DNA of 64,000 nt from a phage. Below the pieces are notes generated by a model that saw nothing but the letters and a program-made list of their open reading frames with translations, did not search any database and was not told where the DNA came from. Where the stretch lies: sequence record PZ168832.1, one strand, 5' to 3'. A program made the position numbers and the translations under genes. Shown piece after piece: positions 10,992 through 52,959 of the stretch (position 1 is its first letter; each line of letters opens with the position of its first letter).

Positions 10992-11023
10992 ATTTTCATC
11001 AAGACAAACAAGTGAGGCGAATT

Positions 11024-15798: not shown

Positions 15799-16499
15799 AT
15801 ACGTATTTATGACAGTTTAATCCACTAAATAATACGGATAGAACAGTGAGGAAAATACAGCGGTGTATTTTAGTGTAAATATTGAATCAAAAATAAATAA
15901 TTATGGTGCTATTATATACGCAGATTGTTTGTAATTTATAGGATATTTTATCGTGGAGTATTGGCTAACGGTGCGTTAGCCGTGGGTCTTGGTGCTTGTG
16001 GTGTTGATGCTCAGAATTTTAATAATGTTTTAGTTTTAGTAATCGTAGTCAATGATGATACGTATAAGAAAATGAGAGTCACCCCTTCACAGGATATTGT
16101 ACCGTGGCCCTGTGGTGCGCCGCGCCTGGGATTGCTGGTATACACTGGTGCTATTTTGCCGCGAAGGCAGTCATTCATACGTATCATGACGTATCATTGG
16201 GCTATTGATTTATAAGGAAAAATACGCTGATACGGATGATACGGGTGCAAACATAATATATATAGAATTCCAGAAAATTAATTAACTCCATTTTGAATTA
16301 ATTTAAATTAATTTTTTTCTACATCCTCATACTTATACTAAACTTATATTTATACGTATCATCCGTAAGATATAAGTAAAAACAAAGACTTGCGGCAATA
16401 CGGATGATACGTCATGATACGCTTCAACCAGCCATCTGCGGCTAAGTCATTGATTTGCATAACAAGCGGCGAAAGGGATGGATTTCTTTTATACGTATC
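15799..16499. repeat. Iteron cluster A: 9-10-bp CGTATCATC / GATGATACG units in both orientations around an AT-rich core
   Basis: Units at about 16057-16065, 16176-16200, 16229-16245, 16353-16369, 16398-16422, 16491-16499; AT-rich core 16261-16316; 8-bp palindrome GGCTAACG..CGTTAGCC at 15962-15980. Confidence 0.6.
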
Positions 16500-16635
16500 A
16501 AACAGTACACCACGCACCACGGTCCGCAATCCACGCAGCATTATGATTTGTGTACATTTATAGCCATAATGAACATCAATCTGCACTTGAATATAATGTC
16601 CATCCATTGTATAATTCACACTATTAATTTGCACT

Positions 16636-17124
16636 ATGGGATTTTGCACTATGAGTCAAGACTATGTAGCGATGCCTGAAGACTTTGAAGACCCGCGATT
16701 TGCAGAGCACAATCAGGCTTTATTCGATGAGTTCATTGACCTTGTTATTCAGGGCCATGACATGCGCGCAGCTTTTGCACTAGTATTTGGAATGGAAGTT
16801 GCAACGGATAACTACACTGGACAGCGAATCCTTTGCGCGCAACGCAACCCATACTACAAAATGCGCTTCAAAAAGCGTATGGAAGAGATGCCACTCAAGG
16901 ATTTGTGGAGCGTAAAAGGTGCAATTCACAATTTGGTTAAGCTTGTGCGTGATCCAGAAGTCGCGGCGTCAGCCAAGCTTAATGCTATTCGCGAACTGAA
17001 TATCATCTACGGCATCACGATGATTGATGAAAACGGCAATAGTAAAATGGGCCGTTCCATGGACGATTTCTACAAGGATTTTGGAGAGGCAGCCAAAGAA
17101 GGCGAGCAATTCTCCCGCCACTAG
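16636..17124 (+). CDS. Terminase small-subunit-like DNA-binding protein (tentative)
   Basis: N-terminal FDEFIDLVIQGHDMRAAFALVFG and QRNPYYKMR resemble the small-terminase HTH pattern (F..EY..d.n...AA..AGYS ... LL.NP.V), by recall only. Alternative starts at 16651 and 16672. Confidence 0.4.
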   Translation: MGFCTMSQDYVAMPEDFEDPRFAEHNQALFDEFIDLVIQGHDMRAAFALVFGMEVATDNYTGQRILCAQRNPYYKMRFKKRMEEMPLKDLWSVKGAIHNLVKLVRDPEVAASAKLNAIRELNIIYGITMIDENGNSKMGRSMDDFYKDFGEAAKEGEQFSRH

Positions 17125-17142
17125 CCAATTTGCACTATAAAA

Positions 17143-17178
17143 CGGCCCTAGAACACATCTTCTCCACTTCTAGGGCCG
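17143..17178 (+). other. 11-bp perfect inverted repeat (stem-loop) just after the terminase-small-like gene
   Basis: CGGCCCTAGAA, 14-nt loop, TTCTAGGGCCG; no T-tract follows. Confidence 0.3.
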
Positions 17179-17523
17179 TCGGTAATACGACGGGGAAGGT
17201 TGCAACCGTAAACGCGTTAGAAAGTGTATTATTATAAGTCATCTTTTAGTCACCTTACGTAACAATTTACGACCTTCAGCCGTCCAATCGAACGACTCCA
17301 CCAGCAGATTCGCACTATAACCTAAGATGATGCGCCCTTTCTCGTTATCGACCCGCCAACAAGTCTCGAATAGCATTCGATTTGCACTATTAACTATCGC
17401 CGCAACGCGCGTAGGGTAAACGCAATTTGCACTATGGTCATAAAGGGATAAGGTGCGACCACTTCCGATGGACAACGTAGCGATGAGAATGAGCGTATTC
17501 ATAAGCCACCAATTTGCACTATG

Positions 17524-17546
17524 AAAAGCGACCCCGAAGGGCCGCC
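17524..17546 (-). terminator. Rho-independent terminator ending the minus-strand arm of the cassette
   Basis: On minus strand GGCGGCCC-TTCG-GGGTCGC (7-bp stem with one G-U, TTCG tetraloop) followed by TTTT. Confidence 0.45.
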
Positions 17547-17552
17547 ATTCGA

Positions 17553-18179
17553 TTAGATAATCTGGAAGGTGTAGGACTTGTTGCCGAACTCGAAGTTCAA
17601 GCGCCCAGCTTCCTTAAGCTTCATGCGGAAGCGAATATGTTTGCTATCCGGTAAGCCCAGCGCGGCGAACGCTACGCGGACCGATTTGAACTCTCCTACA
17701 CCCTCGACCATAACGCCGTTACGGGTAAGACGCTTTTGCGCCACTTCCTTATTATCCCAACTTTTTGCAATGCCTTCGCTATTCGAACGGCGATGGGAAG
17801 GAGTTCCGTTTTGCACTACGCAATTTGCACTATCGTTTAAACCGCTCTTAACGAAGGCTTCATACTCTTCGTCGGTCATCGCGTCGAGTTCTTCCTGCGT
17901 CGGCTCGGCCTTTTTAACGACCGCACGCGCCTTATGCGTTTTTACATCGCTGGACACTTCCTCGCGCGGCTTCGCGTCGGGGATGGGCGATTCGTTGGAC
18001 GGCTCATCGAGCGCGTTTAAGGACTCGATTAACGCGATTACGCGAGTCTCGGCGGTCCGGCGGTCCGAAAACTTCTTAATCGGTTTTGAGCCGGAATTTG
18101 CATTATAGAATGCAACGAGGTCGGCGGTCTTAGTTGCGATAACGTCGCCGCTAGTCGAGAAGCGATTTAAGCTAACCAT
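17553..18179 (-). CDS. Hypothetical protein (208 aa), cassette gene
   Basis: Strong third-position bias with abundant CGC/TCG/GCG/TTA codons unlike the rest of the window; the antisense ORF 17578..18108 is Ser-rich low complexity. Confidence 0.55.
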   Translation of the reverse strand: MVSLNRFSTSGDVIATKTADLVAFYNANSGSKPIKKFSDRRTAETRVIALIESLNALDEPSNESPIPDAKPREEVSSDVKTHKARAVVKKAEPTQEELDAMTDEEYEAFVKSGLNDSANCVVQNGTPSHRRSNSEGIAKSWDNKEVAQKRLTRNGVMVEGVGEFKSVRVAFAALGLPDSKHIRFRMKLKEAGRLNFEFGNKSYTFQII

Positions 18180-18259
18180 AATAAACTCCTATTTGTTAGG
18201 GCGCTAGGCGCGAAAGAATTTTATTAAAGCGCCGCGCACGACGCTCTAAAAATCCTCTC

Positions 18260-18544
18260 TTACGCTTCGACGAGGGAGAAGGTTTCAAATTCTTCTTCTC
18301 CCATAACGAGTAAAATATTCCCGATTTCGACCGCTTCGAAGAAGTATCCGTTAACGTTTACTTCGAATGATTCGCGGTCCGATTCCGGTAACGCCGCGTA
18401 AAGTTTAAAAGCCTCGGCGACCGTTACCCCACCCGCTTCAATAGTTTGATCTACGTTCGCGGCGTAGACTTCGGATAAATTTTGTTTTACGCCGTAGTTC
18501 TCGACGATAGCGTTACGGATAGAAGAAACGTTAAGAATAGCCAT
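18260..18544 (-). CDS. Small acidic protein, paralogue of 19176..19466
   Basis: Aligns by eye with 19176..19466: SIRNA/SAIRAA, LSEVYAANVDQTIE vs LESVYLSNVDATIE, VNVNGYFFEAVEIG vs VTINGFVYTITEIG. Confidence 0.55.
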   Translation of the reverse strand: MAILNVSSIRNAIVENYGVKQNLSEVYAANVDQTIEAGGVTVAEAFKLYAALPESDRESFEVNVNGYFFEAVEIGNILLVMGEEEFETFSLVEA

Positions 18545-18612
18545 TTTAAACTCCTAGTTGGGATAGGCGTTAACGACCTATTCGTTAACTCATCCCGTCC
18601 CGATATGAGTAC

Positions 18613-18640
18613 ATTATAATATAGTGTAGAAAAAAGTAAA
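18613..18640 (-). promoter_or_regulatory. Cassette promoter P1 (sigma70-like)
   Basis: On minus strand TTTACT, 16-nt spacer, TATAAT, followed by a conserved TATCGGGACGGG block. Confidence 0.5.
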
Positions 18641-18684
18641 GCACTTTTTCGATAAAAATGCGATAAATTATTTTATCTTTTTTC

Positions 18685-18712
18685 TTTACTTCTTCGTACA
18701 CTCGCGTATACT
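18685..18712 (+). promoter_or_regulatory. Cassette promoter P2 (sigma70-like)
   Basis: TTTACT (18685-18690), 16-nt spacer, TATACT (18707-18712), then conserved GTTTATATCGAGACGG. Confidence 0.5.
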
Positions 18713-18767
18713 TGTTTATATCGAGACGGGCGATGGCCTTTCTTCTACTAGCATCGGGAGCTTTATT

Positions 18768-19070
18768 ATGACTACTTTGATCTCTTCCATCCTTACTTAC
18801 GACGAAGACCGCTTAACCGTTCGCTCTCTTATCGCCGCCGTTAACGCGGAACTAGAATCTAGCGCCATTAAGGTCCGCGCGGTCGCCTTCATCGGCCTTT
18901 CCTTCGACGATATGAAGTACGCCGAACGTAGCGCCATCCGCTTCACGAAGACCGACGACGAAGCCGTTACCCTTATCGAGACGGTTACGCCGCGCGACGA
19001 AGCGTTAATTATCATCGAGTATATCGATATAGAAGGTGATAAAGCTTATAAATATTTTATCGCAAAATAA
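18768..19070 (+). CDS. Small acidic protein (100 aa), cassette gene
   Basis: ORF with GGGAG RBS; same codon bias as the other cassette genes. Confidence 0.55.
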   Translation: MTTLISSILTYDEDRLTVRSLIAAVNAELESSAIKVRAVAFIGLSFDDMKYAERSAIRFTKTDDEAVTLIETVTPRDEALIIIEYIDIEGDKAYKYFIAK

Positions 19071-19081
19071 CGAAAAATTGC

Positions 19082-19110
19082 TTTACTTATTCGTACACTA
19101 AGACTATAAT
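19082..19110 (+). promoter_or_regulatory. Cassette promoter P3 (sigma70-like)
   Basis: TTTACT (19082-19087), 17-nt spacer, TATAAT (19105-19110), then conserved GTTTATATCGAGAGGG. Confidence 0.55.
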
Positions 19111-19175
19111 GTTTATATCGAGAGGGATGAGGAAGCGAATAGGTCGCTACCCTCCCGACTAACTAGGAGAATATT

Positions 19176-19466
19176 ATGATTACTTTATCCGCTATCCGCG
19201 CCGCTCGCGTCGAAACTTCCGAAAACTCTAATGTATTTGGCGAAACCTTAGAGAGCGTTTATCTCTCTAACGTAGACGCGACTATCGAGTCTATTTATGA
19301 ACCGATCAACTTCCTCGACCTTTACAAGTATCGCGACGAGGACGTAGCATCCTACCGCGTAACGATTAACGGCTTCGTCTATACGATTACCGAAATCGGC
19401 GGCGAATATCTCGCGATCCCGCAACTCGGCGGAGAAGTGACTTATTTTAAAATCGTAAGCCTTTAA
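19176..19466 (+). CDS. Small acidic protein, paralogue of 18260..18544
   Basis: See alignment under 18260..18544; TAGGAG RBS. Confidence 0.55.
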   Translation: MITLSAIRAARVETSENSNVFGETLESVYLSNVDATIESIYEPINFLDLYKYRDEDVASYRVTINGFVYTITEIGGEYLAIPQLGGEVTYFKIVSL

Positions 19467-19477
19467 GGAGAAGAAAA

Positions 19478-19687
19478 ATGACTAATATGAATAACTCTCT
19501 TAACGCGCGCGCCCATCGTACCGCCGTCATCGATATGTTCCGCGAACTTAAGGAATTATGCGATAATATGAACGCGATGTTATCCATCGGCGGCTGGGGA
19601 TACGAAGAAGAGGTTAAATACGCGGTTATGCGTCGTAAGCGCGATAACGTCCTGGGACAAATTAAACGCGCCGGATTATTCCTTTAA
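19478..19687 (+). CDS. Small hypothetical protein (69 aa), cassette gene
   Basis: GGAGAAG RBS then ATG; followed by a terminator. Confidence 0.45.
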   Translation: MTNMNNSLNARAHRTAVIDMFRELKELCDNMNAMLSIGGWGYEEEVKYAVMRRKRDNVLGQIKRAGLFL

Positions 19688-19713
19688 TTATAATTACCCA
19701 CCGTTACTAATAG

Positions 19714-19739
19714 GCCGCGCTTAGTCGCGGCTTTTCTTC
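19714..19739 (+). terminator. Rho-independent terminator ending the plus-strand arm of the cassette
   Basis: GCCGCG-CTTAGT-CGCGGC hairpin followed by TTTTCTTCG. Confidence 0.55.
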
Positions 19740-19857
19740 GTCCCTATTTCGATGCGCTTCTCCGCGAAAACTCCTTTATCCTTCCCTTCGTCGTCGCATA
19801 ATCTTCTTCGAGATGCTCCTTAGTTCGCATAACAGGTATTACGTTAAATGGAGAACA

Positions 19858-19931
19858 TCGCGTAAGTCCTTGTTTTATATAGACACCTATATCGGACCGT
19901 TAGGGCGGGTCGCGTAAGTCGTTGTTTTATA
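19858..19931 (+). repeat. Direct repeat pair TCGCGTAAGTC(C/G)TTGTTTTATA
   Basis: Copies at 19858-19879 and 19910-19931, 52 bp apart, in a non-coding stretch. Confidence 0.5.
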
Positions 19932-20056
19932 AAGGCGCAAAACTTTCCCTTCGTTCCGAACTAAAACGAGGAATATGCCGACCCTTCGTCCGAAAATAGT
20001 ACGCATGCGAAATTACATGCATCTAGAATAATCCCCACCGATATTATCCTACACGC

Positions 20057-20120
20057 AATCATTCGCTTTCGAATCATTATGCTTCATATTGTTATGCGTC
20101 AAATCATTCGCTTTCGAATT
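20057..20120 (+). repeat. Direct repeat pair of an internally palindromic unit AATCATTCGCTTTCGAAT
   Basis: Copies at 20057-20075 and 20102-20120; each contains the inverted repeat ATTCG..CGAAT. Confidence 0.5.
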
Positions 20121-20391
20121 GTAACGCTGGAAACTGTAACGGCTATTGATTATTGCGTTCGTGTGGTTTTTATGGCATGGGTCTTTTGGTGCGTTTTGGT
20201 ACTTGATGGAATTTGCGGTACACTAATCAAAATACGACACATTTGGTCCACTAACTTTTCAAAGAAAAAGTCCCAGACAGTACCGTACTATTTTGTACCC
20301 ACAGTAAATTTGCAGTACACTCCTGCGCGGCAGGCAAAATAAAGGGCCGCCACAGCGACCCACGATTCACGGTTAAATCAACAAGCACCCA

Positions 20392-21809: not shown

Positions 21810-21890
21810 AATACACCTCACTTGTTAACGTATAATGAGTATAACTTAATAGCCCATAAAGTAAAGGCGCTTTTCAGCGCCTTGAGTGAA

Positions 21891-24248
21891 TTATTTCGCT
21901 GCTTTCAGCGCGGCTATCTCTGCCTTGAGTTCATCTATCTGATCCATCAATGCAAGAATAGCCTCGTGGTGCAGTGCTGCTGCTACACCTGGTGTGTTGA
22001 CAGATTTTATGTTATCCAACGTCGAACCGTCGCGCAGAGTAACAGGCGATGACTGTGTTTCAGATACTGCTTCAGGAAAGTCTTTCTCTACATCCTGGGC
22101 GATGAAGCCAAAACCGACGGAGCCATTAGTTTCCAGAGTCCATGCCACGCCTCTGATGTTGCGCATCTTGACAAGTGGATCAGTGATCCGCTCAATGTTA
22201 CTTTTAATACGTTCATCAGATATACTCCGCCACTCCTGACACCTTGCTATTCCATCGGAGCCAAAAAGATAAGAGGCCGCGCCGCCTGTCCCGCTGTAAA
22301 CGTTCAATTGCGCGCGGTCCAGCGTGGTCGTGCTACTCCTTATGCCTCCGAGAATCCAGCTTCCACTGTACCAGTCACCGCTGATTGAGTTTACAAAATT
22401 TCCTTCTGGAACGTTGGCATAGTTTTGAATCCTTATGGCGTTGTTTTCTGCAGCAGCAACGCCTACTGAATTAACTGGGGATGCAACAAGGTCTTTAGAC
22501 CGGATATATGCATCAACAACTATTGTCCCATCAGGGCGCAGAGTTCCAATCTGGGATGTGGAATTCGGCAACACCAATTTGCCATCTTGGTTAAATGCCC
22601 ACTCTTGCACCCCATTAGATATCACAGCACCTTGTTCAGACGTCAATCCATCAATTTTGCCGTATGCCTGCAAGAATGCTTGATACGCGATGTTCGTGCC
22701 AATCTTATATTCAGATTTTACACTACCGCCTCTGACAAGCATTCCGGCTGCAGGTTTTACTGCGTCGCCGTTAATCACACTCCAAGAAGTATTCGCGGCA
22801 ACAAATCCACCCGATGCACGAATCACCCAAACGCCAACAAAGTTGCGACCCATGATTTCGTCAGTTGCCGCTCCATAAATCGGGCTTGATCTGGATGCAT
22901 CAATATTTATTGTATTGAGACGCCCCTCTACTGCCCCGCTTCCAACAGGTATGGTGTCGCCAGCGCCTTGGGGGTACAAATCGTTGTTTGTGTAAAAAGC
23001 ACCTCGGACGGCTGTGCCAAAGATTTGCGCATAAGTGCCTGCCGATACACCAGCGGCTGAGCCTGTGATGTTTGGTGCAGCAGATTCAAATATTTGACCG
23101 TTCGCAGTGGAGTTGCCGCCATCACCGCGCCCGTAAAGCGCCCGTACAGAGCCTGTCTGAACACCGTTAAGGTCTGGGACACGGAATGTCGTTGTGCCGT
23201 TACCTGAAGAATATTTTGCACGTTTGAACTTATCCGCAAGCCAGTCGGCATCTGCGATGGGCGAAAGCATTTGCGCATACGCCCAAAGTTCAGGCCAGTC
23301 AGCACGGTTTAGCAATTGCCCGTCTGCAACGACTTCGTATGGCTGAATATATGATCTACTATTGCGAAGATGGAAATCGCCAACACCATAGTTCATGACG
23401 CCGTTCATACTTGGACCAACGGTGCCTGTGTTTACTAAGTTTTCAACCCAACGCTTAGTCGCGGCATCATAATCATTTACAGGGTCGCCAGCGAGCGGCG
23501 TTGATCCTTGTGGACGGATGTTTAGCCACGCCTGAGCATTATCTGCAGAGCCTGTGCCGCCCATTGAAGTTGGAACGATGCTCTGATCAGCAACAGGGCC
23601 GAATCCAAAAGCAGACTTCATCCCTTGGATGGTAGTTTGCCCTGTGCCGCCGTTGGCGACTGGGATGACAGATTTACTGTTGTATAATTGCGCCCATTGA
23701 CTCCAAACCCCATTTACCGCGTTGTAAGTCCTTTGGTATGTAACATTGTTGTAATATGTTGAGTATCTTTGGACGCAACTTTCTATTGATGGTCCAGTTT
23801 TTAGGACTTCAAGGACTCCTGCTTGTGAAACTGGGTAATTAAGAACAGTCTGAGCATCTGCATTGAAGTCTTGGAAATAATTTCCAAACCAAGAGCCTGT
23901 CAGAAAGTTGAGATTTATCCCAGAAGGAAGTTTGCCATAATTTCTTACAACCCCTGTTAAGGTCGCAGCAGTGTTACGAATAGAAAGCATGTCACCAGCA
24001 GACCATGCACGCGCTGCCGTACCTTCTTGTGCGCGCTGCACGGTCAGGACGTCTCCAACCACGGCTGTCACTGTGACAATTTCGAATTGGCGGCCTGTTG
24101 CAGCGTCGACGATTGTCGCCACTACACGCTCGTTCGCGCCCAAGGTCGGAAATCCCGACCCTGAGCGAATTGTGATTGTGGTGTCTGAAGTCGTCGTTGG
24201 TTGAGCCAGCGCGACCTCAAAGTTGTTTTTGAATATTAGCCTTGGCAT
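21891..24248 (-). CDS. Tail fibre / tailspike protein with C-terminal intramolecular chaperone (peptidase S74-like) domain
   Basis: 785 aa; Gly/Ser/Thr-rich beta-type body; collar-like FRVPDLNGVQ...GRG; C-terminus SDERIKSNIERI ... GFIAQDVEKDFPEAV ... ALMDQIDELKAEIAALKAAK typical of auto-cleaving chaperone domains; GAGGA RBS. Confidence 0.75.
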   Translation of the reverse strand: MPRLIFKNNFEVALAQPTTTSDTTITIRSGSGFPTLGANERVVATIVDAATGRQFEIVTVTAVVGDVLTVQRAQEGTAARAWSAGDMLSIRNTAATLTGVVRNYGKLPSGINLNFLTGSWFGNYFQDFNADAQTVLNYPVSQAGVLEVLKTGPSIESCVQRYSTYYNNVTYQRTYNAVNGVWSQWAQLYNSKSVIPVANGGTGQTTIQGMKSAFGFGPVADQSIVPTSMGGTGSADNAQAWLNIRPQGSTPLAGDPVNDYDAATKRWVENLVNTGTVGPSMNGVMNYGVGDFHLRNSRSYIQPYEVVADGQLLNRADWPELWAYAQMLSPIADADWLADKFKRAKYSSGNGTTTFRVPDLNGVQTGSVRALYGRGDGGNSTANGQIFESAAPNITGSAAGVSAGTYAQIFGTAVRGAFYTNNDLYPQGAGDTIPVGSGAVEGRLNTINIDASRSSPIYGAATDEIMGRNFVGVWVIRASGGFVAANTSWSVINGDAVKPAAGMLVRGGSVKSEYKIGTNIAYQAFLQAYGKIDGLTSEQGAVISNGVQEWAFNQDGKLVLPNSTSQIGTLRPDGTIVVDAYIRSKDLVASPVNSVGVAAAENNAIRIQNYANVPEGNFVNSISGDWYSGSWILGGIRSSTTTLDRAQLNVYSGTGGAASYLFGSDGIARCQEWRSISDERIKSNIERITDPLVKMRNIRGVAWTLETNGSVGFGFIAQDVEKDFPEAVSETQSSPVTLRDGSTLDNIKSVNTPGVAAALHHEAILALMDQIDELKAEIAALKAAK

Positions 24249-24286
24249 TTTACGGTCCTCGTTTTGTCGACAACCGTATTATAACC

Positions 24287-24628
24287 TTAATTTCTTTTGA
24301 GAGGAATATGACGGTGGCTGCCATTATTTGGTTTAATAATGAGCATAAAAACGATTAGAAAGATGATGGCTGATATACTTAATTCAATCAGCGCGGCTTG
24401 AGATATGGATTGGTCTTCGTGATACTGCTTTTGCATTTCCGCTTTCTTCTGAGCGCAAACTTCAGGTGATATATAATCGCCTTTTGAGTTGCCATAATAA
24501 ATCTCGCCATTCTCAGAAATAAGTCTGCCGCAAATATCAGTTTCAGCCTTTGCGCTTGACATCATAATGACGGTGCCGATGATAGCGGCAATTGTCCAGA
24601 TTAGCAGTTGTGATAAAGTGTTGTTCAT
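24287..24628 (-). CDS. Membrane/secreted protein (N-terminal signal or anchor, C-terminal TM)
   Basis: AAAGAGG RBS then ATG at 24628; MNNTLSQLLIWTIAAIIGTVIMMSSAKA ... AALIELSISAIIFLIVFMLII. Confidence 0.45.
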   Translation of the reverse strand: MNNTLSQLLIWTIAAIIGTVIMMSSAKAETDICGRLISENGEIYYGNSKGDYISPEVCAQKKAEMQKQYHEDQSISQAALIELSISAIIFLIVFMLIIKPNNGSHRHIPLKRN

Positions 24629-24824
24629 GATGACCTCTTTAAATTCCCTTCCCACATCGGGAAGGGTGAATATTATTTTAAACGAAAGAATAGGCGCGTG
24701 CCACACAGAGAGTCCCAACGGCCTTCGCCGTCCCATATCGAACCAACGCCAGCAGTGATTGGGCCAGCAGAATTGGCGGCATTGGCCCAAGCGAGACGTT
24801 TCAACTTCCAACTGCACCAACGAT

Positions 24825-25058
24825 TCACAGTTCACCTCCAGATTGCAAAACAAGTCCCGCATAGAGGATTGCTAAAGCTAAAGGCGCACCACTTCCAGCT
24901 TCTCTATTCTCTTTGATTTGAAGAGTGTCCTTAAGGAATTGCAGCTGAACGTTGAATTCATTTTCAATTCCAAGCACTCCAGCTAATTCTTTTACAGAAT
25001 CTGCATATGCCTTGTCTAGCACTTCTTTTGGTACTGTTAAAGTCAATTCATTTGCCAT
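24825..25058 (-). CDS. Hypothetical protein
   Basis: In-frame ATG at 25058 (track start is GTG). Confidence 0.4.
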   Translation of the reverse strand: MANELTLTVPKEVLDKAYADSVKELAGVLGIENEFNVQLQFLKDTLQIKENREAGSGAPLALAILYAGLVLQSGGEL

Positions 25059-25269
25059 TTTCTTTCCACTCCACAAATGTGCTGCCACTTGTTTCTCTAT
25101 TTAGCAGGTATCTGCCGCGCATTCCATGAAGGCTGAATTCAACCGTCGATGGATTAGATTTTGAAAGCCACATCGCTTGACCGTCGAATGGTCCGCCAAC
25201 GCATGTGTATTTGGCTTTTGGCTCACTCCTTTTGGGCCGTTTTGCCCGCTCTTTGATTGATAGTCTCAT
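25048..25269 (-). CDS. Hypothetical basic protein
   Basis: 73-aa ORF with ATG. Confidence 0.4.
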   Translation of the reverse strand: MRLSIKERAKRPKRSEPKAKYTCVGGPFDGQAMWLSKSNPSTVEFSLHGMRGRYLLNRETSGSTFVEWKENGK

Positions 25270-25484
25270 CAGTCTTCACCTTGAGATTCAAGACAAGTAA
25301 GAACAAGCCATGTCATCGGAAGAATCAAAACCAGAGAAATAAGGGACCAGATGGACCAGCACAAGATGACAGACTTGAATGTGTGAACGTCGCCAAACGC
25401 AGCAGTGAAACAAAATCCCATCACGAAAGCAAGCGCGGTGGAGTGGTTATCAATGGCTTTGATGGCACGGTCGATGAGTTTCAT
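25269..25484 (-). CDS. Two-TM small membrane protein (holin-like candidate)
   Basis: GGAGG RBS 5 nt before ATG; two hydrophobic segments TALAFVMGFCFTAAFG and VILCWSIWSLISLVLILPMTWLVLTCL. Confidence 0.45.
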   Translation of the reverse strand: MKLIDRAIKAIDNHSTALAFVMGFCFTAAFGDVHTFKSVILCWSIWSLISLVLILPMTWLVLTCLESQGED

Positions 25485-25573
25485 ATTACCTCCGGTTTTG
25501 AGTTAATATGATTATAACGCAGAGCTTCAGAAAGGCAAACTTTTTGTGAATTTATGCCGTCCATGGCAAATGA

Positions 25574-25804
25574 TTAGTGAGAAGACACGACTAATGTGCC
25601 GCTTCCTTTCGCGAAAATCTCAACACCTGGCGGGATTGTGACCGTGCCAACCACTGCGATTCCGATCAACTTGTCATCGGCTTTTTCTTCGAAACAGATC
25701 TCTGCGGCACCGCCGCGAACTTGAATAAGTGCGCCTGATACGTTTTCAGCAACAGAAAGAACGGAAGTGTAAGATGGAGTGAGTTGAATATTTACTAGGG
25801 CCAT
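25574..25804 (-). CDS. Hypothetical protein
   Basis: AGGAG RBS 7 nt before ATG. Confidence 0.4.
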   Translation of the reverse strand: MALVNIQLTPSYTSVLSVAENVSGALIQVRGGAAEICFEEKADDKLIGIAVVGTVTIPPGVEIFAKGSGTLVVSSH

Positions 25805-25818: not shown

Positions 25819-25845
25819 AAAAAAATGGCCAGAAAGAATCTGGCC
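25819..25845 (-). terminator. Rho-independent terminator on the minus strand, directly upstream of the RBS of 25574..25804
   Basis: On minus strand GGCCAGA-TTCTT-TCTGGCC followed by ATTTTTTT. Confidence 0.4.
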
Positions 25846-25922: not shown

Positions 25923-27383
25923 ATGAATAAAATATTAACACATAATTGGAAAGTCATGTACCAGTTGAATCCTGCTTTAAGAGAAGTCTGGAAGACGAAA
26001 GCGCGATACAAAGTAATATACGGCGGTCGTGCATCTTCCAAATCGCATGATGCCGCTGGTTTTGCTATTTATTTGGCGGCAAACTTTAAATTAAAATTCC
26101 TTTGCGTTCGACAATTCCAGAACAAGATTTCTGAATCAGTATATACGCTATTAAAAGACAAAATAGAAATTTCTGATTTCAAAGATGAGTTCAACTTGTT
26201 AAAGAACTCCATTGAACACAAAAGAACAAAATCTGAATTCTTATTTTACGGTATCGCACGCAACGTTGACGAAATCAAATCAACAGAAGGCGTTGATGTT
26301 CTTTGGCTTGAAGAAGCGCACGCACTTACTGAAGAGCAGTGGGACATCATTGAGCCGACAATTCGTAAGGAAGGGTCCGAAATATGGATCATATTTAACC
26401 CTGATGAAGAGGCTGATTTCGTCTACCAGAACTTTGTTATGCGACCGCCTAAAAATGCCATCGTTAAGAAGATTAACTGGCAGGACAATCCATTCTTGTC
26501 GCAAACAATGCTGGACGTTATCGCTGGCATGTATGAGCGCGACCCGAAAAAGGCAGAACACGTTTATGGCGGAGTACCGAAGACAGGCGGCGACAAGTCG
26601 GTCATCAACCGTGCATTCGTCAAGGCCGCACTAAACCTCCACAAACACCCTACGTTGGGATGGAGCTTGTCAGGGTCTAACCGTATAGGCTTTGACGTGG
26701 CAGACGACGGCGACGACTTAAACGCCACAGCATTTGTCACGGGCAACGTATTGCGCGGCATAAAGACATGGGAAGGTCTGGAAGATGAATTGCTTAAGTC
26801 CGCAAGCGGAGTTTGGAAAGATGCATTAACATTCGGCGCATCAATTACCTATGACGCCATCGGTGTTGGTGCATTTGCTGGTTCAAAATTTGATGAGCTT
26901 AATGAGTATGCAATCCATGAAAATCCAACATTCCCAAGAATCGAATTTAATGCGTTCAACGCGCAAGGTGCTGTTGATGATCCTGATGACGTCTTCCTTG
27001 AGTTACCACACGTTGAAATACTCAATAAAGACCATTTCGCAAACATAAAAGCGCAAAAATGGACTGAGATTGCCGAACGATTCAGGAAGACATATGAGTA
27101 TGCAACAGGGCAGGCCGTATACCCGACTGATGAGCTGATTTCCATCGACACAGACGGCATTCCAGAACTTGGGATTCCTGCTTGGTCTGCGGAAGAAATT
27201 GAGACATTTCTTTTTGAGATGTCAGCGCCGCGCAAAGACACGTCTGTGCTTGGTAAGTTTAAAGTTGAATCGAAAAAGGATATGGCAAAGCGTGGAGTCA
27301 AATCGCCTAACAAAGCGGACGCAGCAATCATGGCGTTGATGAAACCAATTGTTGCAGCATCCGGCTTCTTCTCTAACCTTTAA
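25923..27383 (+). CDS. terL: Terminase large subunit
   Basis: P-loop KVIYGGRASSKSH, Walker B-like VDVLWLEEAH, acidic nuclease-type C-terminal half; 486 aa. Confidence 0.85.
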   Translation: MNKILTHNWKVMYQLNPALREVWKTKARYKVIYGGRASSKSHDAAGFAIYLAANFKLKFLCVRQFQNKISESVYTLLKDKIEISDFKDEFNLLKNSIEHKRTKSEFLFYGIARNVDEIKSTEGVDVLWLEEAHALTEEQWDIIEPTIRKEGSEIWIIFNPDEEADFVYQNFVMRPPKNAIVKKINWQDNPFLSQTMLDVIAGMYERDPKKAEHVYGGVPKTGGDKSVINRAFVKAALNLHKHPTLGWSLSGSNRIGFDVADDGDDLNATAFVTGNVLRGIKTWEGLEDELLKSASGVWKDALTFGASITYDAIGVGAFAGSKFDELNEYAIHENPTFPRIEFNAFNAQGAVDDPDDVFLELPHVEILNKDHFANIKAQKWTEIAERFRKTYEYATGQAVYPTDELISIDTDGIPELGIPAWSAEEIETFLFEMSAPRKDTSVLGKFKVESKKDMAKRGVKSPNKADAAIMALMKPIVAASGFFSNL

Positions 27384-28039: not shown

Positions 28040-28201
28040 TTCAATCTCCTTTCGTTTGGTTAACTAAAATATAACTCAAAATGATACAAAAGCAAAATAT
28101 TTTATGAACTATTTATGATTACTATACATATCATTTGCTTACAAACACATGAATATTTATAATATAGATTGATTCCCTTTCACTGTCAGGTGGCGTTAAC
28201 A

Positions 28202-48422: not shown

Positions 48423-51161
48423 ATGCAAAAGTTTGACACAAACCTGTTGCAAAACCTTAAGTGGATGCAGAACAATGCGCCAAACATCACATCTTTGGTG
48501 CAAAAGAAAAGTGACTGGTATGAAAGATACCAAGATCAGTTTTGGACTGACTGGTACAATAACATTTTTAACATTGACACTTGTGATGCAATGGGCATTT
48601 ATATTTGGTGCGACATCCTTTGCATACCAAGAGACTTTGTGGACTTAAGCAACTATGAGCACAACTGGGCGTTTGGACCCACACGCGACAATTTCGAAGG
48701 GCCGGACAATATCGGCGGCAACTTCTTTGGTGCTGGCGGAAAGGTTGTGAAAAACATCGAAGAAGCCCGCATCCTTCTGAAGCTTCGTTATCTGACGCTT
48801 ACAAGTGATGGCCGCATAGAAAGCATCAACCGTATGCTTAAGTGGATTTTCAACCGTGGAGAAGATTGGGATTACTCTTCATCGCGCTACGCATATGTGA
48901 CAGATAATACTCAAGGCGCGGTGTCTTCTTCTGAAGCAACAAACGGCTCATTCCTTCTGTACGACTGGCAGGGGTCAACTGAGATTCAGCACGATTATAA
49001 ACAAGTTCTTTTGAGCCACGGCAACAACGCAGGACTTACCATAAGTGGGGTGGCAGGGACCGTTTCGCGAATGGCACACCCAGACTGGTATTCATGGGGT
49101 AATGGTTCCGGCGCTGGTATTGTCGGTGGCGACACCAGACAGTACGGCGGCCCTGATTACTATGGACAGTTGTGTGGCGATTACCCAGGTGAGGCAATAG
49201 AGAATTTTGCCAACGCAGTAAGGGTCGTCAAGACGGCTTCAAGCGGTGAGCCTGTGTATTCTTTGGCTAATAATCCAAGCGCACAGTCAATTGCCCTTCC
49301 TTCGCAGGCTGGCGTTAACGTTTGCTATAGCTTCTACATAAAGGTGCTTTCTGAAAACGTCGCTTCTGTTTCTGTTACAGAGAATAGTGATGCATCGAGC
49401 AATGGAAAGCTGTTTGACCCCGTCACCGGCCAGTTCAACTTGGACCCGTCATTGAGCTATTTCATCAAAGGCAAATTCGATGGAGTAAGAAGGGAATCAA
49501 ACCGTGGTGGCATAAAAGCAATTGGCGGCGATTGGTATCGAATCTGGATTGTAGAGCAGACGGCAACCGCTGCTTCTGGAGTAAGTACCAGCTTTTCAAT
49601 AGAGTTGAAGGCGACTGCCGCTGGATCAACTCAAACTCGTGAATTGCCTGAAGGGTCTGATGCACTTCTTTTTGGATACTCGATTTGCGTCTGCGACCCT
49701 GTTCAGAATCCAAATGGGCCTGAGCCTTATTTTTATGGAACGCAAAACCCTCCTTCTGACGGAACAGCAATACTGTCTGTAACGGCGGGAACGCTCAACA
49801 ACATCTCCTGTGCAAACGGACCGCTGACGACAAGAAACGGTGTGGTTGGCGAGTCATTCATGCAACCTGGCTCATCACTTGCATACTCTGGCTCAATCGG
49901 CGGCTACCCGTACCCAGGGAACGCCACATTGATTGCAGAGACTGACGGCATCAGACGCTCATGGAACGTTAGCAGGCTTGATGGAGTACCGCCGCCGCCG
50001 ACCGCTGACTATTACATGGAATACGTCATCGGACCTTATTTCGCCAACAACCTGTCAGACAACTTTAAGACGCTAGTTGGCGACAGGAATGAAGGATTCT
50101 TGCCAGCAAATGCCGGAATACGTTGGCAGCTTTACCAAGAAGTCGCAGACTTATCTGATATTGATTTGACCGTCAGCAACATAACAGACACGCGAGTAGG
50201 ATTCGAAACGGAAGGTGTCGCATGGATTAACACTGACGGCATCATCAGAGTTGGCGGCATAAACGAGTGGCCGTTGAACAACTTCAAAGGTGTTATACGA
50301 CAGCTTGAATCTTTGAAAGGTGTGAACCAAGTTATCGACGGCGCACTTGTCAACGACTATTCAATCTCAAAAGCATCAAGAGATGACTTTGGTCGTGAAA
50401 TCCCACGTGCCGCGATCACAAACTACTGGCGATACACACAGCCCAATGACGGCACATCTTTTGGAAATATCGTCAAGGACGGAGATAACACGGTAACGGC
50501 GACGCCAATCAGCGGTGTGCCCAACCAGTTCCCATCATTCAAGCTTTCCGCTACAATAGGGACTGTGCCAGCGTCCGGCTATGCACGTGCTGTACTTGCT
50601 ACTAAATACACTGGCAACCTGACTGGTCCTTTGTCATTTATCGCAATAGTTAAAAACAACACGGTAAACGGTCAAAAACTTTTCGTAACCGTACCGGATG
50701 GTATGGGCGGCTATATCCCTAAATTCTACAGCATAGGCGCAGGTGATTTGCAACGTATCGAAATTGACCTTGCCGCTGAGATTGTTGCAGGAACGACTTG
50801 GGATGGTTCGACAGGTGGAATCAGCATTGGTTTGATATCAGGGAAAGACTTGCCGACCGAAGTTGGTACGACTCTTGAACTTGATATTTTAAGCTTGATG
50901 CTTGTTTCTGGTAATACGATGAATGCTCTTGCGATTTCAACAAGCGAAGATTTTGCAAAGAAAACTGCAACTTCTATATACATCAAAAACCCAGGGTCAC
51001 TGGCGACTGGAGTTCAATTGATAGCTTCGAATGGGGATGTTGTAGCGACAGTAAACTTTCCAAGAAGTGCTGCTGGCGGTTATGTTTCAAGCATGAATAT
51101 AACTGACTTGACTGGTGATTGGGCATCGACCCTTTTATCAAAAATTAAATACATCGTGTAG
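48423..51161 (+). CDS. Large tail fibre / baseplate-attached protein
   Basis: 912 aa, Gly/Ser/Thr/Asn-rich; GAGGAA RBS. Confidence 0.55.
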   Translation: MQKFDTNLLQNLKWMQNNAPNITSLVQKKSDWYERYQDQFWTDWYNNIFNIDTCDAMGIYIWCDILCIPRDFVDLSNYEHNWAFGPTRDNFEGPDNIGGNFFGAGGKVVKNIEEARILLKLRYLTLTSDGRIESINRMLKWIFNRGEDWDYSSSRYAYVTDNTQGAVSSSEATNGSFLLYDWQGSTEIQHDYKQVLLSHGNNAGLTISGVAGTVSRMAHPDWYSWGNGSGAGIVGGDTRQYGGPDYYGQLCGDYPGEAIENFANAVRVVKTASSGEPVYSLANNPSAQSIALPSQAGVNVCYSFYIKVLSENVASVSVTENSDASSNGKLFDPVTGQFNLDPSLSYFIKGKFDGVRRESNRGGIKAIGGDWYRIWIVEQTATAASGVSTSFSIELKATAAGSTQTRELPEGSDALLFGYSICVCDPVQNPNGPEPYFYGTQNPPSDGTAILSVTAGTLNNISCANGPLTTRNGVVGESFMQPGSSLAYSGSIGGYPYPGNATLIAETDGIRRSWNVSRLDGVPPPPTADYYMEYVIGPYFANNLSDNFKTLVGDRNEGFLPANAGIRWQLYQEVADLSDIDLTVSNITDTRVGFETEGVAWINTDGIIRVGGINEWPLNNFKGVIRQLESLKGVNQVIDGALVNDYSISKASRDDFGREIPRAAITNYWRYTQPNDGTSFGNIVKDGDNTVTATPISGVPNQFPSFKLSATIGTVPASGYARAVLATKYTGNLTGPLSFIAIVKNNTVNGQKLFVTVPDGMGGYIPKFYSIGAGDLQRIEIDLAAEIVAGTTWDGSTGGISIGLISGKDLPTEVGTTLELDILSLMLVSGNTMNALAISTSEDFAKKTATSIYIKNPGSLATGVQLIASNGDVVATVNFPRSAAGGYVSSMNITDLTGDWASTLLSKIKYIV

Positions 51162-51171
51162 AGGAACGGCA

Positions 51172-52959
51172 ATGCCAACACTTATTAACAGACCTTTCGC
51201 GCAAAGCGGTGATGTATCCGTGGTGCCGGATGCAAGCCCAAGTGGTTATGTGAACTTCCAGCGCGGATACACCCCTGACTATGCGCTTGCTCTGGCGGCT
51301 GGAAACGTCTCCGCGAAAGCTGTTGAGCGCGAATCGATGAACTGGTTGTTGAATCTGATTACAGACAACCTTATGTTTATTCAAGATCATGGCGCTCAAC
51401 AATATTTCTCTTCTGACTTGAAGCCGGATGGATACCCGAAAAACGCCATCGTAGTAAGCAACTCTGGAACTCCTTCAGCGCCTGAATGGCGCATTTTCCA
51501 GAGCGTAGTTGACGGAAACACAAGCGCCGTCCCGGCCAACGGAGAAACGGAATCTTGGCAGGAATTAACACTGCCCAGCGAAGCGCGAAAATACATTCCT
51601 ATGCCTGCTGGCGGCGATGCGCAAAACCCGTATTTTGTTCGCGGATTGATTTCAAGTGTTGTTGACTTTGACAATATCACGACTTCCACAACTATCGTGA
51701 TTCAATCCGATGCCGTTGCCGCTCTGTGCTCTAACATACCGAATGCTGTTGGCGCAACGAAGGTTGCAGGTCGGCTGCAGGTATGCGCTTGGCAGGTCGA
51801 TGAACAAACCTTTGCCTTGCAGCAATATACATCAATGAATGGCTATTTGTTTACTCGCTCTTATACTTCTGGTGCTTGGAGTGCTTGGATTCAAAATGCC
51901 ACTGTTCAAGACGTTCAAATTGGAACGCCGAATCTTGCATCAGGTAAAGGAGCGCAAGACATAATCCTTACCGTCCCAGCAGGTTATTCATGGCCTCCGT
52001 CAGCAGGTAGTCGCCTGACAATCGTCAATGATGTGACGACTACCGGACCTGTCACTGTGACCATTGGTGTAAACAAAGTTGCCGTTCTTGGATTCGACGG
52101 CAGCGAGTTGCCAGCTGGCGCTATCGTAGGCCTGTTGCCATTCACCATCATCTATGACGGCACTGTTTGGCGTCTTCTTCAGGCATTCGGCGCGGCGCAA
52201 ATCGGCGTTGATGCTACGGAGCCGCAGCAGTTTGTTACCAAAAGGCAACTTGACGCGCTTGCCGCGAAGTTGATTACCATGGGTGACGTATTCGAAGTCG
52301 GTGAGACTCGATTCCTTACCAACGGGACCAACCCGAATACTAAACTGGGCGCTTACGGCCAGGTATGGACACGACTGCCTGATAACATGGTGATTCGCAC
52401 GTCCGGCGCTGCGCGAAACGGTCTTGATACAGGCGGAGCAGACTCTGTTACTCTCACCGCCGCCATGCTTCCTCTCCATAATCACAGCGTGAACATTACC
52501 ACGCGACAAAGTGGTCCATGGTCCAATACCACTGGAGACGCAGGCAACCATAACCACACAGGCGATACCAGTCAAAACGGCGCTCACGTGCACGGAATGG
52601 ACACGGCAGGCAACCACCATCATGACAGTAGCTGGGGTGAAGCGAATACGAACGATGCACGATACGGCGTTTATGATGGAACACACAACAACTTCGGAAG
52701 TCGAAAGGGCGGCGACTGGGACAACTACAAATACAACACTTCAACCAACGGCAACCACGTCCATAATATTCAGTCGTCTGGATCACACACCCATGGGTTG
52801 AATATAAATTACGCTGGCAATCACAGCCATAGCTATACCCTTCCCGCTCACACTCACGATGTGGTCGGTAACACTGGCAACGCAGGGCAGTCCGTTCCAA
52901 CGGCTGTTTCAACCCTGCCGCGATATGTCGTCTTGAACGGCTGGTACAGAAGCGCATAA
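51172..52959 (+). CDS. Tail fibre protein with His-x-His repeat tip
   Basis: GAGGA RBS then ATG at 51172; C-terminal region has seven HxH motifs (NHNH, AHVH, NHHH, NHVH, SHTH, NHSH, AHTH). Confidence 0.65.
   Translation: MPTLINRPFAQSGDVSVVPDASPSGYVNFQRGYTPDYALALAAGNVSAKAVERESMNWLLNLITDNLMFIQDHGAQQYFSSDLKPDGYPKNAIVVSNSGTPSAPEWRIFQSVVDGNTSAVPANGETESWQELTLPSEARKYIPMPAGGDAQNPYFVRGLISSVVDFDNITTSTTIVIQSDAVAALCSNIPNAVGATKVAGRLQVCAWQVDEQTFALQQYTSMNGYLFTRSYTSGAWSAWIQNATVQDVQIGTPNLASGKGAQDIILTVPAGYSWPPSAGSRLTIVNDVTTTGPVTVTIGVNKVAVLGFDGSELPAGAIVGLLPFTIIYDGTVWRLLQAFGAAQIGVDATEPQQFVTKRQLDALAAKLITMGDVFEVGETRFLTNGTNPNTKLGAYGQVWTRLPDNMVIRTSGAARNGLDTGGADSVTLTAAMLPLHNHSVNITTRQSGPWSNTTGDAGNHNHTGDTSQNGAHVHGMDTAGNHHHDSSWGEANTNDARYGVYDGTHNNFGSRKGGDWDNYKYNTSTNGNHVHNIQSSGSHTHGLNINYAGNHSHSYTLPAHTHDVVGNTGNAGQSVPTAVSTLPRYVVLNGWYRSA

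Follow-up and report, generated by a model that had tools for sequence, protein, structure and literature searches.

The 785-aa open reading frame (ORF) on the minus strand between the terminase genes of this phage (record PZ168832.1, of which we analysed a stretch of 64,000 nucleotides, hereafter the window) very probably encodes the variable lateral fibre of the Wifcevirus myoviruses, the main host-range determinant, carried at a long-standing locus and altered by the swapping of receptor-binding segments. We attribute to this reading a probability of roughly 0.88. The protein is the already described host-range fibre of the genus, and its exact allele is new. The window can be assigned from its sequence to a Wifcevirus-type E. 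coli phage, ECML-117 being 93.5% identical to it in nucleotides over 95% of 12 kb.

Identity and domain layout of the variable fibre

The ORF with a C-terminal S74 domain listed in the initial annotation was found at 21891..24248 (minus strand; Pfam Peptidase_S74, PF13884, E=1.9e-11). Its product belongs to the tail fibres of PHROG 6921 (E=2.5e-257) and is 86.9% identical overall to ECML-117 gp24 and 83.5% to vB_Eco4M-7 gp27. A T-shaped fibre with two receptor-binding domains (RBDs) and an intramolecular chaperone (IMC) has been published for Wifcevirus (BASEL collection, 2025; PMC11990801). The position and strand of the gene, between p113 and a downstream terminator, are constant in the relatives.

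Residues 1-100 (23949..24248, minus strand) form a conserved N-terminal anchor, with 92-95% identity among five Wifcevirus fibres; part of it, aa 4-97, resembles the N-terminal end of the tail fibre protein in 8JOV (E=1.3e-8). A variable knob segment, aa 104-191 (23676..23939, minus strand), matches the R2-pyocin fibre 6CT8 (E=8e-6) and, with only 44-61% identity to the five Wifcevirus fibres compared, is a novel allele. The sequence indicates a conserved stem running into RBD1. This domain, aa 233-518 (22695..23552, minus strand), is LtfA-like (DT57C LtfA 539-825, E=3.7e-115) and has been reported as Gp12-like, SSF88874 / phage tail collar (PMC11990801). The Pfam Collar match was recovered in 7/7 homologs at sub-threshold level (best E=2e-4, 19.9 bits for a cut-off of 24), and in a PDB profile search DT57C LtfA was the sole match, T4 gp12 not being matched. 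RBD2, aa 519-676 (22221..22694, minus strand), has been reported to have a T5 pb1-like fold detectable by structure only (PMC11990801); an AlphaFold2 single-sequence model of aa 466-785 reached a mean pLDDT of 36, too low to use.

The chaperone domain and its predicted release

The last residues of the fibre, aa 677-785 (21894..22220, minus strand), constitute an S74-type IMC with a predicted cleavage before S677. The PF13884 match spans aa 677-728 of 785 and scores 44.5 bits for a cut-off of 22. The catalytic Ser-Lys dyad motif S-[DE]-x-R-x-K comes from endosialidase and T5 pb1, and an intact Ser/Lys motif, S677-DERIK682, is found at the start of the domain; SDERIK is kept in ECML-117, vB_Eco4M-7, WFC, Bas99, FFH1 and EP335. 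Profile matches to this region comprise the MYRF ICA domain 7DC3 (E=2e-8), 6F45, 3GUD and the C-terminus of LtfA. The K1F endosialidase, T5 pb1 and MYRF ICA chaperones share with the fibre the PF13884 family, an S-x4-K motif and a C-terminal helical segment.

Published mass spectrometry (MS) of two relatives was re-read, and the two datasets are contradictory on chaperone release. For ECML-117 gp24, the 18 mature peptides detected reach as far as the final tryptic peptide of the mature part, against none of the 7 expected IMC peptides (Fisher p about 4e-5 to 8e-3). For vB_Eco4M-7 gp27, IMC coverage is 83%, with 459 PSMs per 100 aa in the IMC versus 226 in the mature part, and the dataset contains no peptide spanning the cleavage site. 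Because IMC peptides are abundant in vB_Eco4M-7, chaperone release is not uniformly supported. The preparations of both phages also contain non-virion proteins.

Virion presence of orthologs and probable receptor

Orthologs of the fibre are top-scoring proteins in CsCl-gradient preparations according to published MS. vB_Eco4M-7 does not infect rfbE mutants devoid of O157 antigen and complementation restores infection; the O157 antigen has been genetically shown to be its receptor. Both ECML-117 and FFH1 were isolated on O157:H7. By analogy with these relatives, the fibre encoded in the window most probably binds O-antigen, that of O157.

Mosaicism of the fibre

The fibre is the sole hypervariable gene of its neighbourhood, with 53-87% amino acid identity within the genus for 92-100% in the flanking genes. 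It shares with Bas99 (ManiWeber) Gp114, ECML-117 gp24 and vB_Eco4M-7 gp27 the same locus, anchor, stem, two variable RBDs and S74 domain, but its allele, whose knob is at most 61% identical to the five fibres compared, combines these modules anew. In the RBD1 core (aa 361-518), identity is 99% with ECML-117 and 53% with vB_Eco4M-7, whereas RBD2 is 99% identical to vB_Eco4M-7 and 73% to ECML-117, and the IMC is 96% identical to vB_Eco4M-7. The allele is a chimera of an ECML-117-type RBD1 with an RBD2 and a chaperone of vB_Eco4M-7 type. RBD2 is 16-18% identical to those of WFC, Bas99 and Mansfield. No copy of the exact fibre sequence was found among ~15 billion proteins; p113 was matched exactly on 44 contigs and p76 on 35.

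The receptor-binding segments are common to T5-like siphoviruses and Gordonclarkvirinae (phiEco32-like) podoviruses, module identities being 70-85% to the siphovirus FFH1 (70% for RBD2) and 66-78% to the podovirus EP335. Over aa 233-772 the fibre is homologous to LtfA of the T5-like phage DT57C (E=4e-115) and 76% identical to ORF131 of FFH1, also T5-like. LtfA and ORF131 are lateral fibres that bind O-antigen and end in an IMC, as the fibre of the window is predicted to do. The N-terminal attachment differs: LtfA threads into an LtfC ring on the siphovirus tail tip, and no LtfB/LtfC partners are present in the window. The 8HQZ structure does not resolve the RBD portion of LtfA, so that the likeness to LtfA is one of sequence only. 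EP335 gp13 is 63% identical over aa 255-772 (RBD2 66%, IMC 78%) and has been reported to bind the O157 O-antigen (PMC11990801), but EP335 is a podovirus that has a separate proximal fibre as adaptor and a different N-terminus.

Terminase genes and the block between them

The gene at 16636..17124 (plus strand) is a genuine small terminase subunit (TerS) of E217 type, as first annotated. It is homologous to the structurally solved E217 TerS decamer, PDB 7UXE (PMC9611059), with phmmer aligning aa 7-152 to 6-150 (E=6.1e-34) at 41% identity, and 359 phage records, the majority Pbunavirus, contain a homolog. An alternative start lies at 16651; in relatives the gene is annotated as starting 15 nt farther downstream. 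Each end of the WFC record holds the same 3,784-bp sequence (100% identity), an exact repeat whose ends map to ~16290 and 20267 of the window; in Mansfield, a direct terminal repeat (DTR) of 3,673 bp predicted by PhageTerm starts at the same point. The region of the window that corresponds to the DTR of Wifcevirus virion DNA, 16290..20267 (no strand), includes six or seven small ORFs besides TerS, and by equivalence to these relatives TerS is predicted to lie within a ~3.8-kb DTR. In WFC, Mansfield, MTx and Kyle, TerS starts ~350 nt from the left end of the DTR; recognition of the packaging site and an essential part in packaging are putative roles of the protein, proposed from its position. 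A long DTR holding TerS is documented for Wifcevirus, Myosmarvirus and Kylevirus (two TerS copies in the record), but not for Pbunavirus.

The large subunit (TerL), also correctly named at the outset, is encoded at 25923..27383 (plus strand; Terminase_3, PF04466, E=3.2e-37, 128.5 bits for a cut-off of 23.2) and is 99-100% identical to Wifcevirus TerL, 75% to that of Kyle and 64% to that of Pa193. The two terminase genes, said to be about 9 kb apart, are separated by 8.8 kb. That TerS and TerL are not neighbours in the Pbunavirus layout (E217 / Pa193) has already been remarked (PMC9611059). A spacing of ~7.5-9 kb with mostly minus-strand ORFs between was found in Pa193, Kyle, PCSE1, MTx and TropicalSun, and the layout of TerS, ~8-kb minus-strand block and TerL also occurs in Pbunavirus, Kylevirus, Myosmarvirus and Salmonella phage PCSE1. 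In the Pbunavirus Pa193, as in the window, TerS (603-1172) and TerL (8680-10062) enclose small minus-strand ORFs, but the Pbunavirus block contains neither a fibre nor another large ORF. The 785-aa fibre is not present in any of these four groups, all of which have the gap, and Kylevirus carries a different receptor-binding protein (RBP) inside the equivalent block. The layout is common to the members of the clade and therefore older than the fibre; the minus-strand block goes back to the ancestor of the entire Pbunavirus-like clade.

Small minus-strand ORFs and transcription signals

Upstream of the fibre, p113 (24287..24628, minus strand) has a signal-peptide-like N-terminus and a C-terminal TM (hydrophobic segments aa 3-27 and 74-103). 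It is 96-98% conserved within the genus, with no homolog in the outgroups and no match in Pfam or PHROG. Next come four small ORFs, at 24673..25484 and all on the minus strand, whose start and stop codons overlap and whose conservation within the genus is 92-100%: p51 (24673-24828), p77 (24825-25058), p73 (25048-25269; PHROG 12090) and p71 (25269-25484), a membrane protein with a TM segment at aa 35-67. A further minus-strand gene, p76 (25574..25804), encodes a small soluble protein without match in WFC; MS of the two CsCl preparations revealed its ortholog in each (vB_Eco4M-7_32, score 1002 and 55% coverage; PI34_gp30). The "several small membrane proteins" of the initial annotation are reduced by this to p113 and p71, which are strongly hydrophobic, and possibly p77, which is borderline; p51, p73 and p76, the rest of the six ORFs, are not membrane proteins.

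The promoter and terminator calls in the cluster are consensus matches only. A sigma-70-like promoter candidate (TTGCCT-16-TATAAT, 10/12 consensus match) lies at 25511..25538 on the minus strand and precedes the p71 ribosome-binding site, GGAGG, by ~30 nt. An intrinsic-terminator-like hairpin with an 8-bp stem and 5 GC pairs (21864..21883, minus strand) stands 8 nt after the fibre stop, and a second terminator-like hairpin, a 7-bp stem then ATTTTTTT, is found upstream of p76 (25827..25845, minus strand). Terminators are annotated at positions equivalent to both hairpins in the WFC record.

The second fibre and the baseplate gene

Two further fibre genes, and hence up to three receptor-binding proteins, had been proposed at 48423-52959. 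The gene at 51172..52959 (plus strand) does encode a conserved second tail fibre (Pa193 gp47 tail fibre, E=2.1e-32), corresponding to the conserved fibre of PMC11990801; its ORF is open from 51115, with ATG 51172 the likely start, and eight HxH motifs are found at aa 455-581. The 912-aa ORF at 48423..51161 (plus strand) was rejected as a fibre: it has no fibre homology or domain and is a baseplate wedge or "triplex" homolog, aa 4-186 matching Pa193 gp46 (E=1.5e-41), E217 gp45 and DUF2612, and the N-terminal 186 aa matching the baseplate wedge 2 / triplex structures 9B45_v and 8ENV_K. The other ~700 aa are conserved within the genus and specific to it, with matches only to PHROGs of unknown function, and the whole protein is 97-99% conserved in 29 Wifcevirus records. 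The count is therefore two recognised fibres and a conserved baseplate protein, as in PMC11990801, and not three receptor-binding proteins.

Alternative interpretations

The arrangement had initially been taken to suggest an acquired host-range module. The term host-range module is appropriate for a hypervariable gene which is missing from Pbunavirus and has RBD segments common to other phages, including unrelated sipho- and podoviruses. These features, together with the different RBP in the same block of Kylevirus, would also suit a recently acquired mobile island consisting of the whole opposite-strand cluster, but that reading is already largely refuted and very improbable. Gene order and orientation are identical in 5/5 Wifcevirus compared (Mansfield, Bas99, ECML-117, WFC and vB_Eco4M-7), between flanks that are 92-100% identical; clade members that lack the fibre also have the terminase gap; GC is 0.47 in the cluster and 0.46 in the whole window; neither repeats flanking the cluster nor a recombinase in its neighbourhood were found; and variation in the fibre is not accompanied by variation in the small ORFs. 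Since the fibre occupies the same locus in every relative examined, the arrangement is normal for the group and not a fresh acquisition; comparison of synteny reveals it as ancestral, and it can no longer be read as a sign of acquisition in this phage. Still more remote is a host-range segment capable of inversion, as with Mu Gin / P1 Cin, suggested by the strand of the cluster, opposite to that of the flanking terminase genes: the inverted matches are short, with 72-84% complementarity and no pair bracketing the fibre, orientation is constant in all relatives compared, and the neighbourhood contains no recombinase or serine invertase. This candidate was rejected for want of flanking inverted repeats and an invertase.

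A doubtful, although less improbable, proposal is that the fibre works as a single module with the co-oriented small membrane proteins, p113 or p71 serving for example in superinfection exclusion, receptor masking, or fibre export or assembly. In T5, Llp acts in superinfection exclusion or receptor masking and its gene lies next to the RBP gene. The overlapping start and stop codons, the one candidate promoter upstream of p71 and the one terminator after the fibre suggest co-transcription; p113 has the signal-like N-terminus and C-terminal TM described above, and the small genes are genus-specific, as is the fibre. However, the small proteins remain 92-100% identical while the RBDs change completely, and are therefore not receptor-specific partners; moreover, they have no family assignment in Pfam and PHROG, are absent from the virion MS tables, and the fibre has its own chaperone domain. 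That the protein is a soluble or virion-borne endosialidase or depolymerase instead of a fibre is hardly credible. The SP13 ortholog is annotated as endo-N-acetylneuraminidase, and endosialidases are where the S74 domain was originally defined, but the match is confined to the chaperone domain, searches of Pfam, PHROG and PDB found no sialidase or beta-helix catalytic domain, and the homologs of the protein body are fibres (LtfA, R2 pyocin fibre, 8JOV).

Proposed function and evolution of the locus

Under the preferred reading of a variable Wifcevirus lateral fibre, the C-terminal chaperone would bring three fibre chains into register and then cleave itself off before S677, leaving a 676-aa mature trimer that would dock on the baseplate via its N-terminus. 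The fibre would bind O-antigen, most probably O157, ahead of the second fibre and of the action of the contractile tail. Its gene and a hairpin terminator would end a minus-strand unit, p71-p73-p77-p51-p113-fibre, situated in the minus-strand block between the putative TerS-holding DTR and TerL. The fibre gene probably joined this ancestral block when the genus arose or earlier, and since then only the receptor-binding segments would have been exchanged, by recombination.

A tail-fibre locus between the terminase genes

The minus-strand fibre cluster lying between the two terminase genes is real and correctly located. It is what Wifcevirus phages normally carry, the variable tail-fibre locus published for this genus, in the usual layout of the Pbunavirus-like clade. 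Its main gene (21891-24248, -) encodes a 785-amino acid fibre whose residues 677-728 match Pfam Peptidase_S74, the 'chaperone of endosialidase' domain (44.5 bits, threshold 22; E=1.9e-11), and both terminase assignments of the initial annotation were confirmed. ORF 25923-27383 (+) codes for a Terminase_3 large subunit (TerL; E=3e-37). ORF 16636-17124 (+), which has no match in Pfam, is the small subunit (TerS) by its similarity to the structurally determined TerS from Pseudomonas phage E217 (PDB 7UXE, E=6.1e-34; identity of the structure from PMC9611059). Homologs of this TerS were found in 359 phage records, mostly of Pbunavirus.

A 12-kb query around the fibre locus aligned over 95% of its length with Escherichia phage ECML-117, at 93.5% identity, and also matched about 30 other Wifcevirus records. 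Synteny was compared in five independently annotated relatives, namely Mansfield, ManiWeber/Bas99, ECML-117, WFC and vB_Eco4M-7. All five share the order TerS, small ORFs, minus-strand fibre, 5-6 small minus-strand ORFs and TerL, in identical orientation, which contradicts the earlier proposal that the arrangement points to an acquired host-range module. No flanking inverted repeats were found around the cluster and no recombinase in its neighbourhood, so that an invertible segment was rejected; a mobile island was likewise rejected, given the lack of a recombinase and the unremarkable GC content of the cluster.

The separation of the terminase genes extends to other genera. A stretch of approximately 7.5-9 kb (hereafter the block), made up mainly of small minus-strand ORFs, separates TerS from a following TerL in Pa193 (Pbunavirus; TerS 603-1172, TerL 8680-10062), Kyle (Kylevirus; 357-839 and 10101-11501), the unclassified Salmonella phage PCSE1 (831-1298, with an unannotated candidate TerL ORF at 9165-10727 sharing 55% amino acid identity with that of the window), and the Myosmarvirus phages MTx (377-892, assigned by position, and 8295-9677) and TropicalSun (60520-61101 and 1-1461). 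The split terminase genes are therefore a clade trait older than the fibre. Non-adjacent terminase genes were already remarked for E217, as '~58 kb' apart (PMC9611059), a distance measured the long way round.

The terminal repeat

Both ends of the WFC record consist of one and the same 3,784-bp sequence, an exact repeat that includes TerS, and a direct terminal repeat of 3,673 bp with the same start was predicted by PhageTerm in Mansfield. Mapped onto the window, the terminal repeat spans approximately 16290-20267, so that about 350 nt separate TerS from the left terminus of virion DNA. Immediately to the right of the repeat begins the fibre block; its direction is towards the repeat, out of a divergent region that it has in common with TerL.

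Several sequence elements were observed in and around this repeat. The 12-mer AATTTGCACTAT occurs in eight copies (at most one mismatch) at 16626-18106, all on the + strand and within the repeat, around TerS and downstream of it; the chance expectation is 0.57 copies, and none of 100 shuffles yielded eight. Mansfield, Bas99, ECML-117 and WFC have exact copies at these same positions; Kyle, Pa193 and PCSE1 have none. This candidate site may serve TerS/packaging or regulation. An AT-rich stretch around the inferred left end of the genome (~16290) has on its flanks several perfect copies, palindromic or inverted, of CGTATCATGACGTATCAT / ATACGGATGATACG (16050-16500); these could be packaging or replication signals. 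Towards the right boundary (~20267), and about 130-210 nt inside it, an ORF-poor segment at 20057-20137 holds three overlapping direct repeats (AATCATTCGCTTTCGAAT...). ORFs 18260-18544 (-) and 19176-19466 (+) are apparent paralogs, the first being 33% identical to the relatives' copies of the second; their upstream regions form inverted repeats of 33-55 nt that are 85% and 71% complementary. Region 18260-19466 thus resembles a promoter-plus-gene cassette that was duplicated in inverted orientation within the terminal repeat.

Modular structure of the fibre

Wifcevirus phages are described as having two fibres, a conserved one encoded in the tail locus and a 'T-shaped' one. The latter combines a conserved anchor at the N-terminus with two receptor-binding domains (Gp12-like RBD1 and T5-like RBD2) and an intramolecular chaperone (IMC) at the C-terminus; its RBDs vary and are exchanged horizontally (PMC11990801). 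This published modularity is reproduced in the window fibre, which is 53-87% identical to those of its relatives, against 92-100% for neighbouring genes. Residues 1-100 (92-95%) and 192-360 (91-98%) are conserved on either side of a variable knob (aa 104-191; 44-61% identity) that resembles an R2-pyocin fibre (E=8e-6). The RBD1 core (aa 361-518) is 99% identical to ECML-117 and 53% to vB_Eco4M-7; RBD2 (aa 519-676) and the chaperone (aa 677-785) are respectively 99% and 96% identical to vB_Eco4M-7, and share 16-33% identity with WFC, Bas99 and Mansfield. The motif S677-DERIK682 is intact at the start of the chaperone domain, from which a mature fibre of 676 aa and a chaperone of 109 aa are predicted.

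Beyond the genus, the fibres of the T5-like siphovirus FFH1 and the podovirus EP335 share 76% and 63% identity with aa 235-772. Residues 233-518 match LtfA of DT57C (E=4e-115), a likeness of sequence only, since the 8HQZ structure does not show the corresponding part of LtfA. The Gp12-like character of RBD1 appeared as a consistent but sub-threshold Collar match; PDB profile searches with RBD1 and RBD2 alignments returned only LtfA and IMC-family proteins, with neither T4 gp12 or gp37 nor T5 pb1 among the matches. An AlphaFold2 model of aa 466-785, built without alignment, was discarded (pLDDT 36).

No copy of the exact fibre allele was found in a collection of approximately 15 billion proteins, in which verbatim copies of two small proteins of the cluster, p113 (24287-24628, -) and p76 (25574-25804, -), occur on dozens of ~68-kb contigs. 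Contigs of ~68-69 kb with exact p113 or p76 appear under the name 'Escherichia coli' among NCBI and Logan assemblies, which suggests that bacterial assemblies contain hidden whole Wifcevirus genomes.

The small ORFs between the fibre gene and TerL had been described as several small membrane proteins; this holds clearly for p113 and p71, is borderline for p77 and fails for the others. Pfam and PHROGs searches gave no usable function for any of them. Start and stop codons overlap in p71, p73, p77 and p51. A TTGCCT-16-TATAAT sequence lies about 30 nt upstream of the p71 RBS (25538-25511, -), a perfect TATAAT separates the p113 stop from the fibre RBS (24283-24278), and a GC-rich hairpin follows 8 nt past the fibre stop, where the WFC annotators also put a terminator; all three are putative elements, recognised only by their match to a consensus. 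Variation in the RBDs is not accompanied by variation in the small proteins, which are thus not receptor-specific partners.

Virion proteins, receptor and fate of the chaperone

Mass spectrometry of virions, suggested earlier as a check, is already published: Necel et al. (2020) analysed CsCl-gradient preparations of vB_Eco4M-7 and ECML-117 and detected the fibre orthologs in both (PMC7048862). The vB_Eco4M-7 ortholog, gp27, had the top score, with 34 peptides and 80% coverage. The 912-aa protein and the 614-aa fibre discussed below and the p76 ortholog were also detected, and the orthologs of the membrane proteins p113, p71 and p77 are absent from the tables of that study. The p76 orthologs occur in both preparations (vB_Eco4M-7_32, score 1002, 55% coverage; PI34_gp30). 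p76 is a possible virion-associated protein that annotations have missed, yet WFC lacks the gene.

The published peptides (PMC7048862, Tables S2 and S3) were mapped onto the two fibre sequences. In ECML-117 gp24, 87% identical to the window fibre, 18 unique peptides were found, one of them the last long tryptic peptide ahead of S677; the chaperone should yield seven, and none is reported (Fisher p from 4e-5 to 8e-3, depending on assumptions). This pattern is what release of the chaperone predicts. Chaperone peptides, wholly absent there, are abundant in vB_Eco4M-7 gp27, with 83% coverage and 459 PSMs per 100 aa, twice the 226 of the mature part. The published tryptic fragments at the predicted cleavage site are too short to decide on a site-spanning peptide. 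Both preparations contain the maturation protease/scaffold, and that of vB_Eco4M-7 also traces of helicase and endolysin; neither therefore consists of pure mature virions. A HiBiT tag at the gp27 C-terminus, the chaperone end, is tolerated (PMC11074155). Formally, self-cleavage of the chaperone in the Wifcevirus fibre is a prediction from its motif.

Receptor binding has likewise been studied in a relative: vB_Eco4M-7 requires the O157 antigen, rfbE mutants lacking it being resistant and complementation restoring infection (2024, PMC11074155). As the RBD2 and chaperone of the window fibre are 96-99% identical to those of vB_Eco4M-7 and its RBD1 99% identical to that of ECML-117, both O157:H7 phages, the O157 O-antigen is probably the receptor of the window phage as well.

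Two further fibre genes had been proposed downstream. ORF 51172-52959 is indeed the conserved fibre, a homolog of Pa193 gp47 with eight HxH motifs. ORF 48423-51161 (+) instead encodes a 912-aa baseplate wedge/triplex homolog with a genus-specific C-terminal extension of ~700 aa, 97-99% conserved. Residues 563-624 of this protein match PHROG 11600, the family of Kyle gene 21 (9035-9766, -), located in the TerS-TerL block of that phage. The ORF directly after the conserved fibre gene (52968-53612, +) encodes 214 aa that match Glyco_hydro_19 (chitinase class I-like); the product corresponds to the 'lytic enzyme' that mass spectrometry found in relatives. The 802-aa portal (28169-30577, +; Phage_portal_3, E=5e-88) carries a C-terminal inorganic-pyrophosphatase-like InPase domain (aa 660-782, E=3e-46).

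Receptor-binding proteins in the block of other genera

The window fibre has no match in Pa193 or in Pbunavirus generally. No receptor-binding protein could be recognised in the block of Pbunavirus, PCSE1, BcepF1 (Bcepfunavirus), MTx or TropicalSun, the Myosmarvirus block holding a 344-356-aa ORF. At the corresponding position in Kylevirus, Pantoea phage Kyle encodes a 611-aa WceF-like EPS depolymerase (5701-7536, -; PDB 6TGF, E=4e-81; PHROG 4250, E=2e-149), with only about 25 residues before the WceF-aligning region and no obvious virion anchor. Homology between this protein and the fibre was rejected (E=0.14), so the shared slot is positional only; the small genes flanking the two are not orthologous. 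Together, the lack of a recognisable receptor-binding protein in the Pbunavirus and Myosmarvirus blocks and the unrelated Kyle ORF indicate that the fibre gene is a lineage-specific addition fixed in the genus, and no recent island. A broader joint reading seems doubtful to us: the block would be a recurrent landing site for an additional receptor-binding protein in enterobacterial Pbunavirus-like phages, the ~700-aa wedge extension a docking adaptor for a second fibre on a Pbunavirus-type baseplate, and the knob a third specificity module.

Conclusions

For close relatives, the literature already covers the fibre type and its locus as well as its occurrence in virion preparations and the O-antigen receptor, and separate terminase genes are familiar from the Pbunavirus-like clade; new here are only the chimeric allele with its new knob, the positional parallel to the Kylevirus depolymerase and the question of the chaperone's fate. 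The value of the finding lies in annotation practice more than in discovery: TerS, hypothetical in most records, deserves annotation, and genome maps are best opened at the terminal repeat. For the phage itself, an O157-type O-antigen target becomes predictable, and its fibre is a natural chimera between the fibres of two characterised O157 phages; the clear borders of its modules make it useful for fibre-swap engineering.
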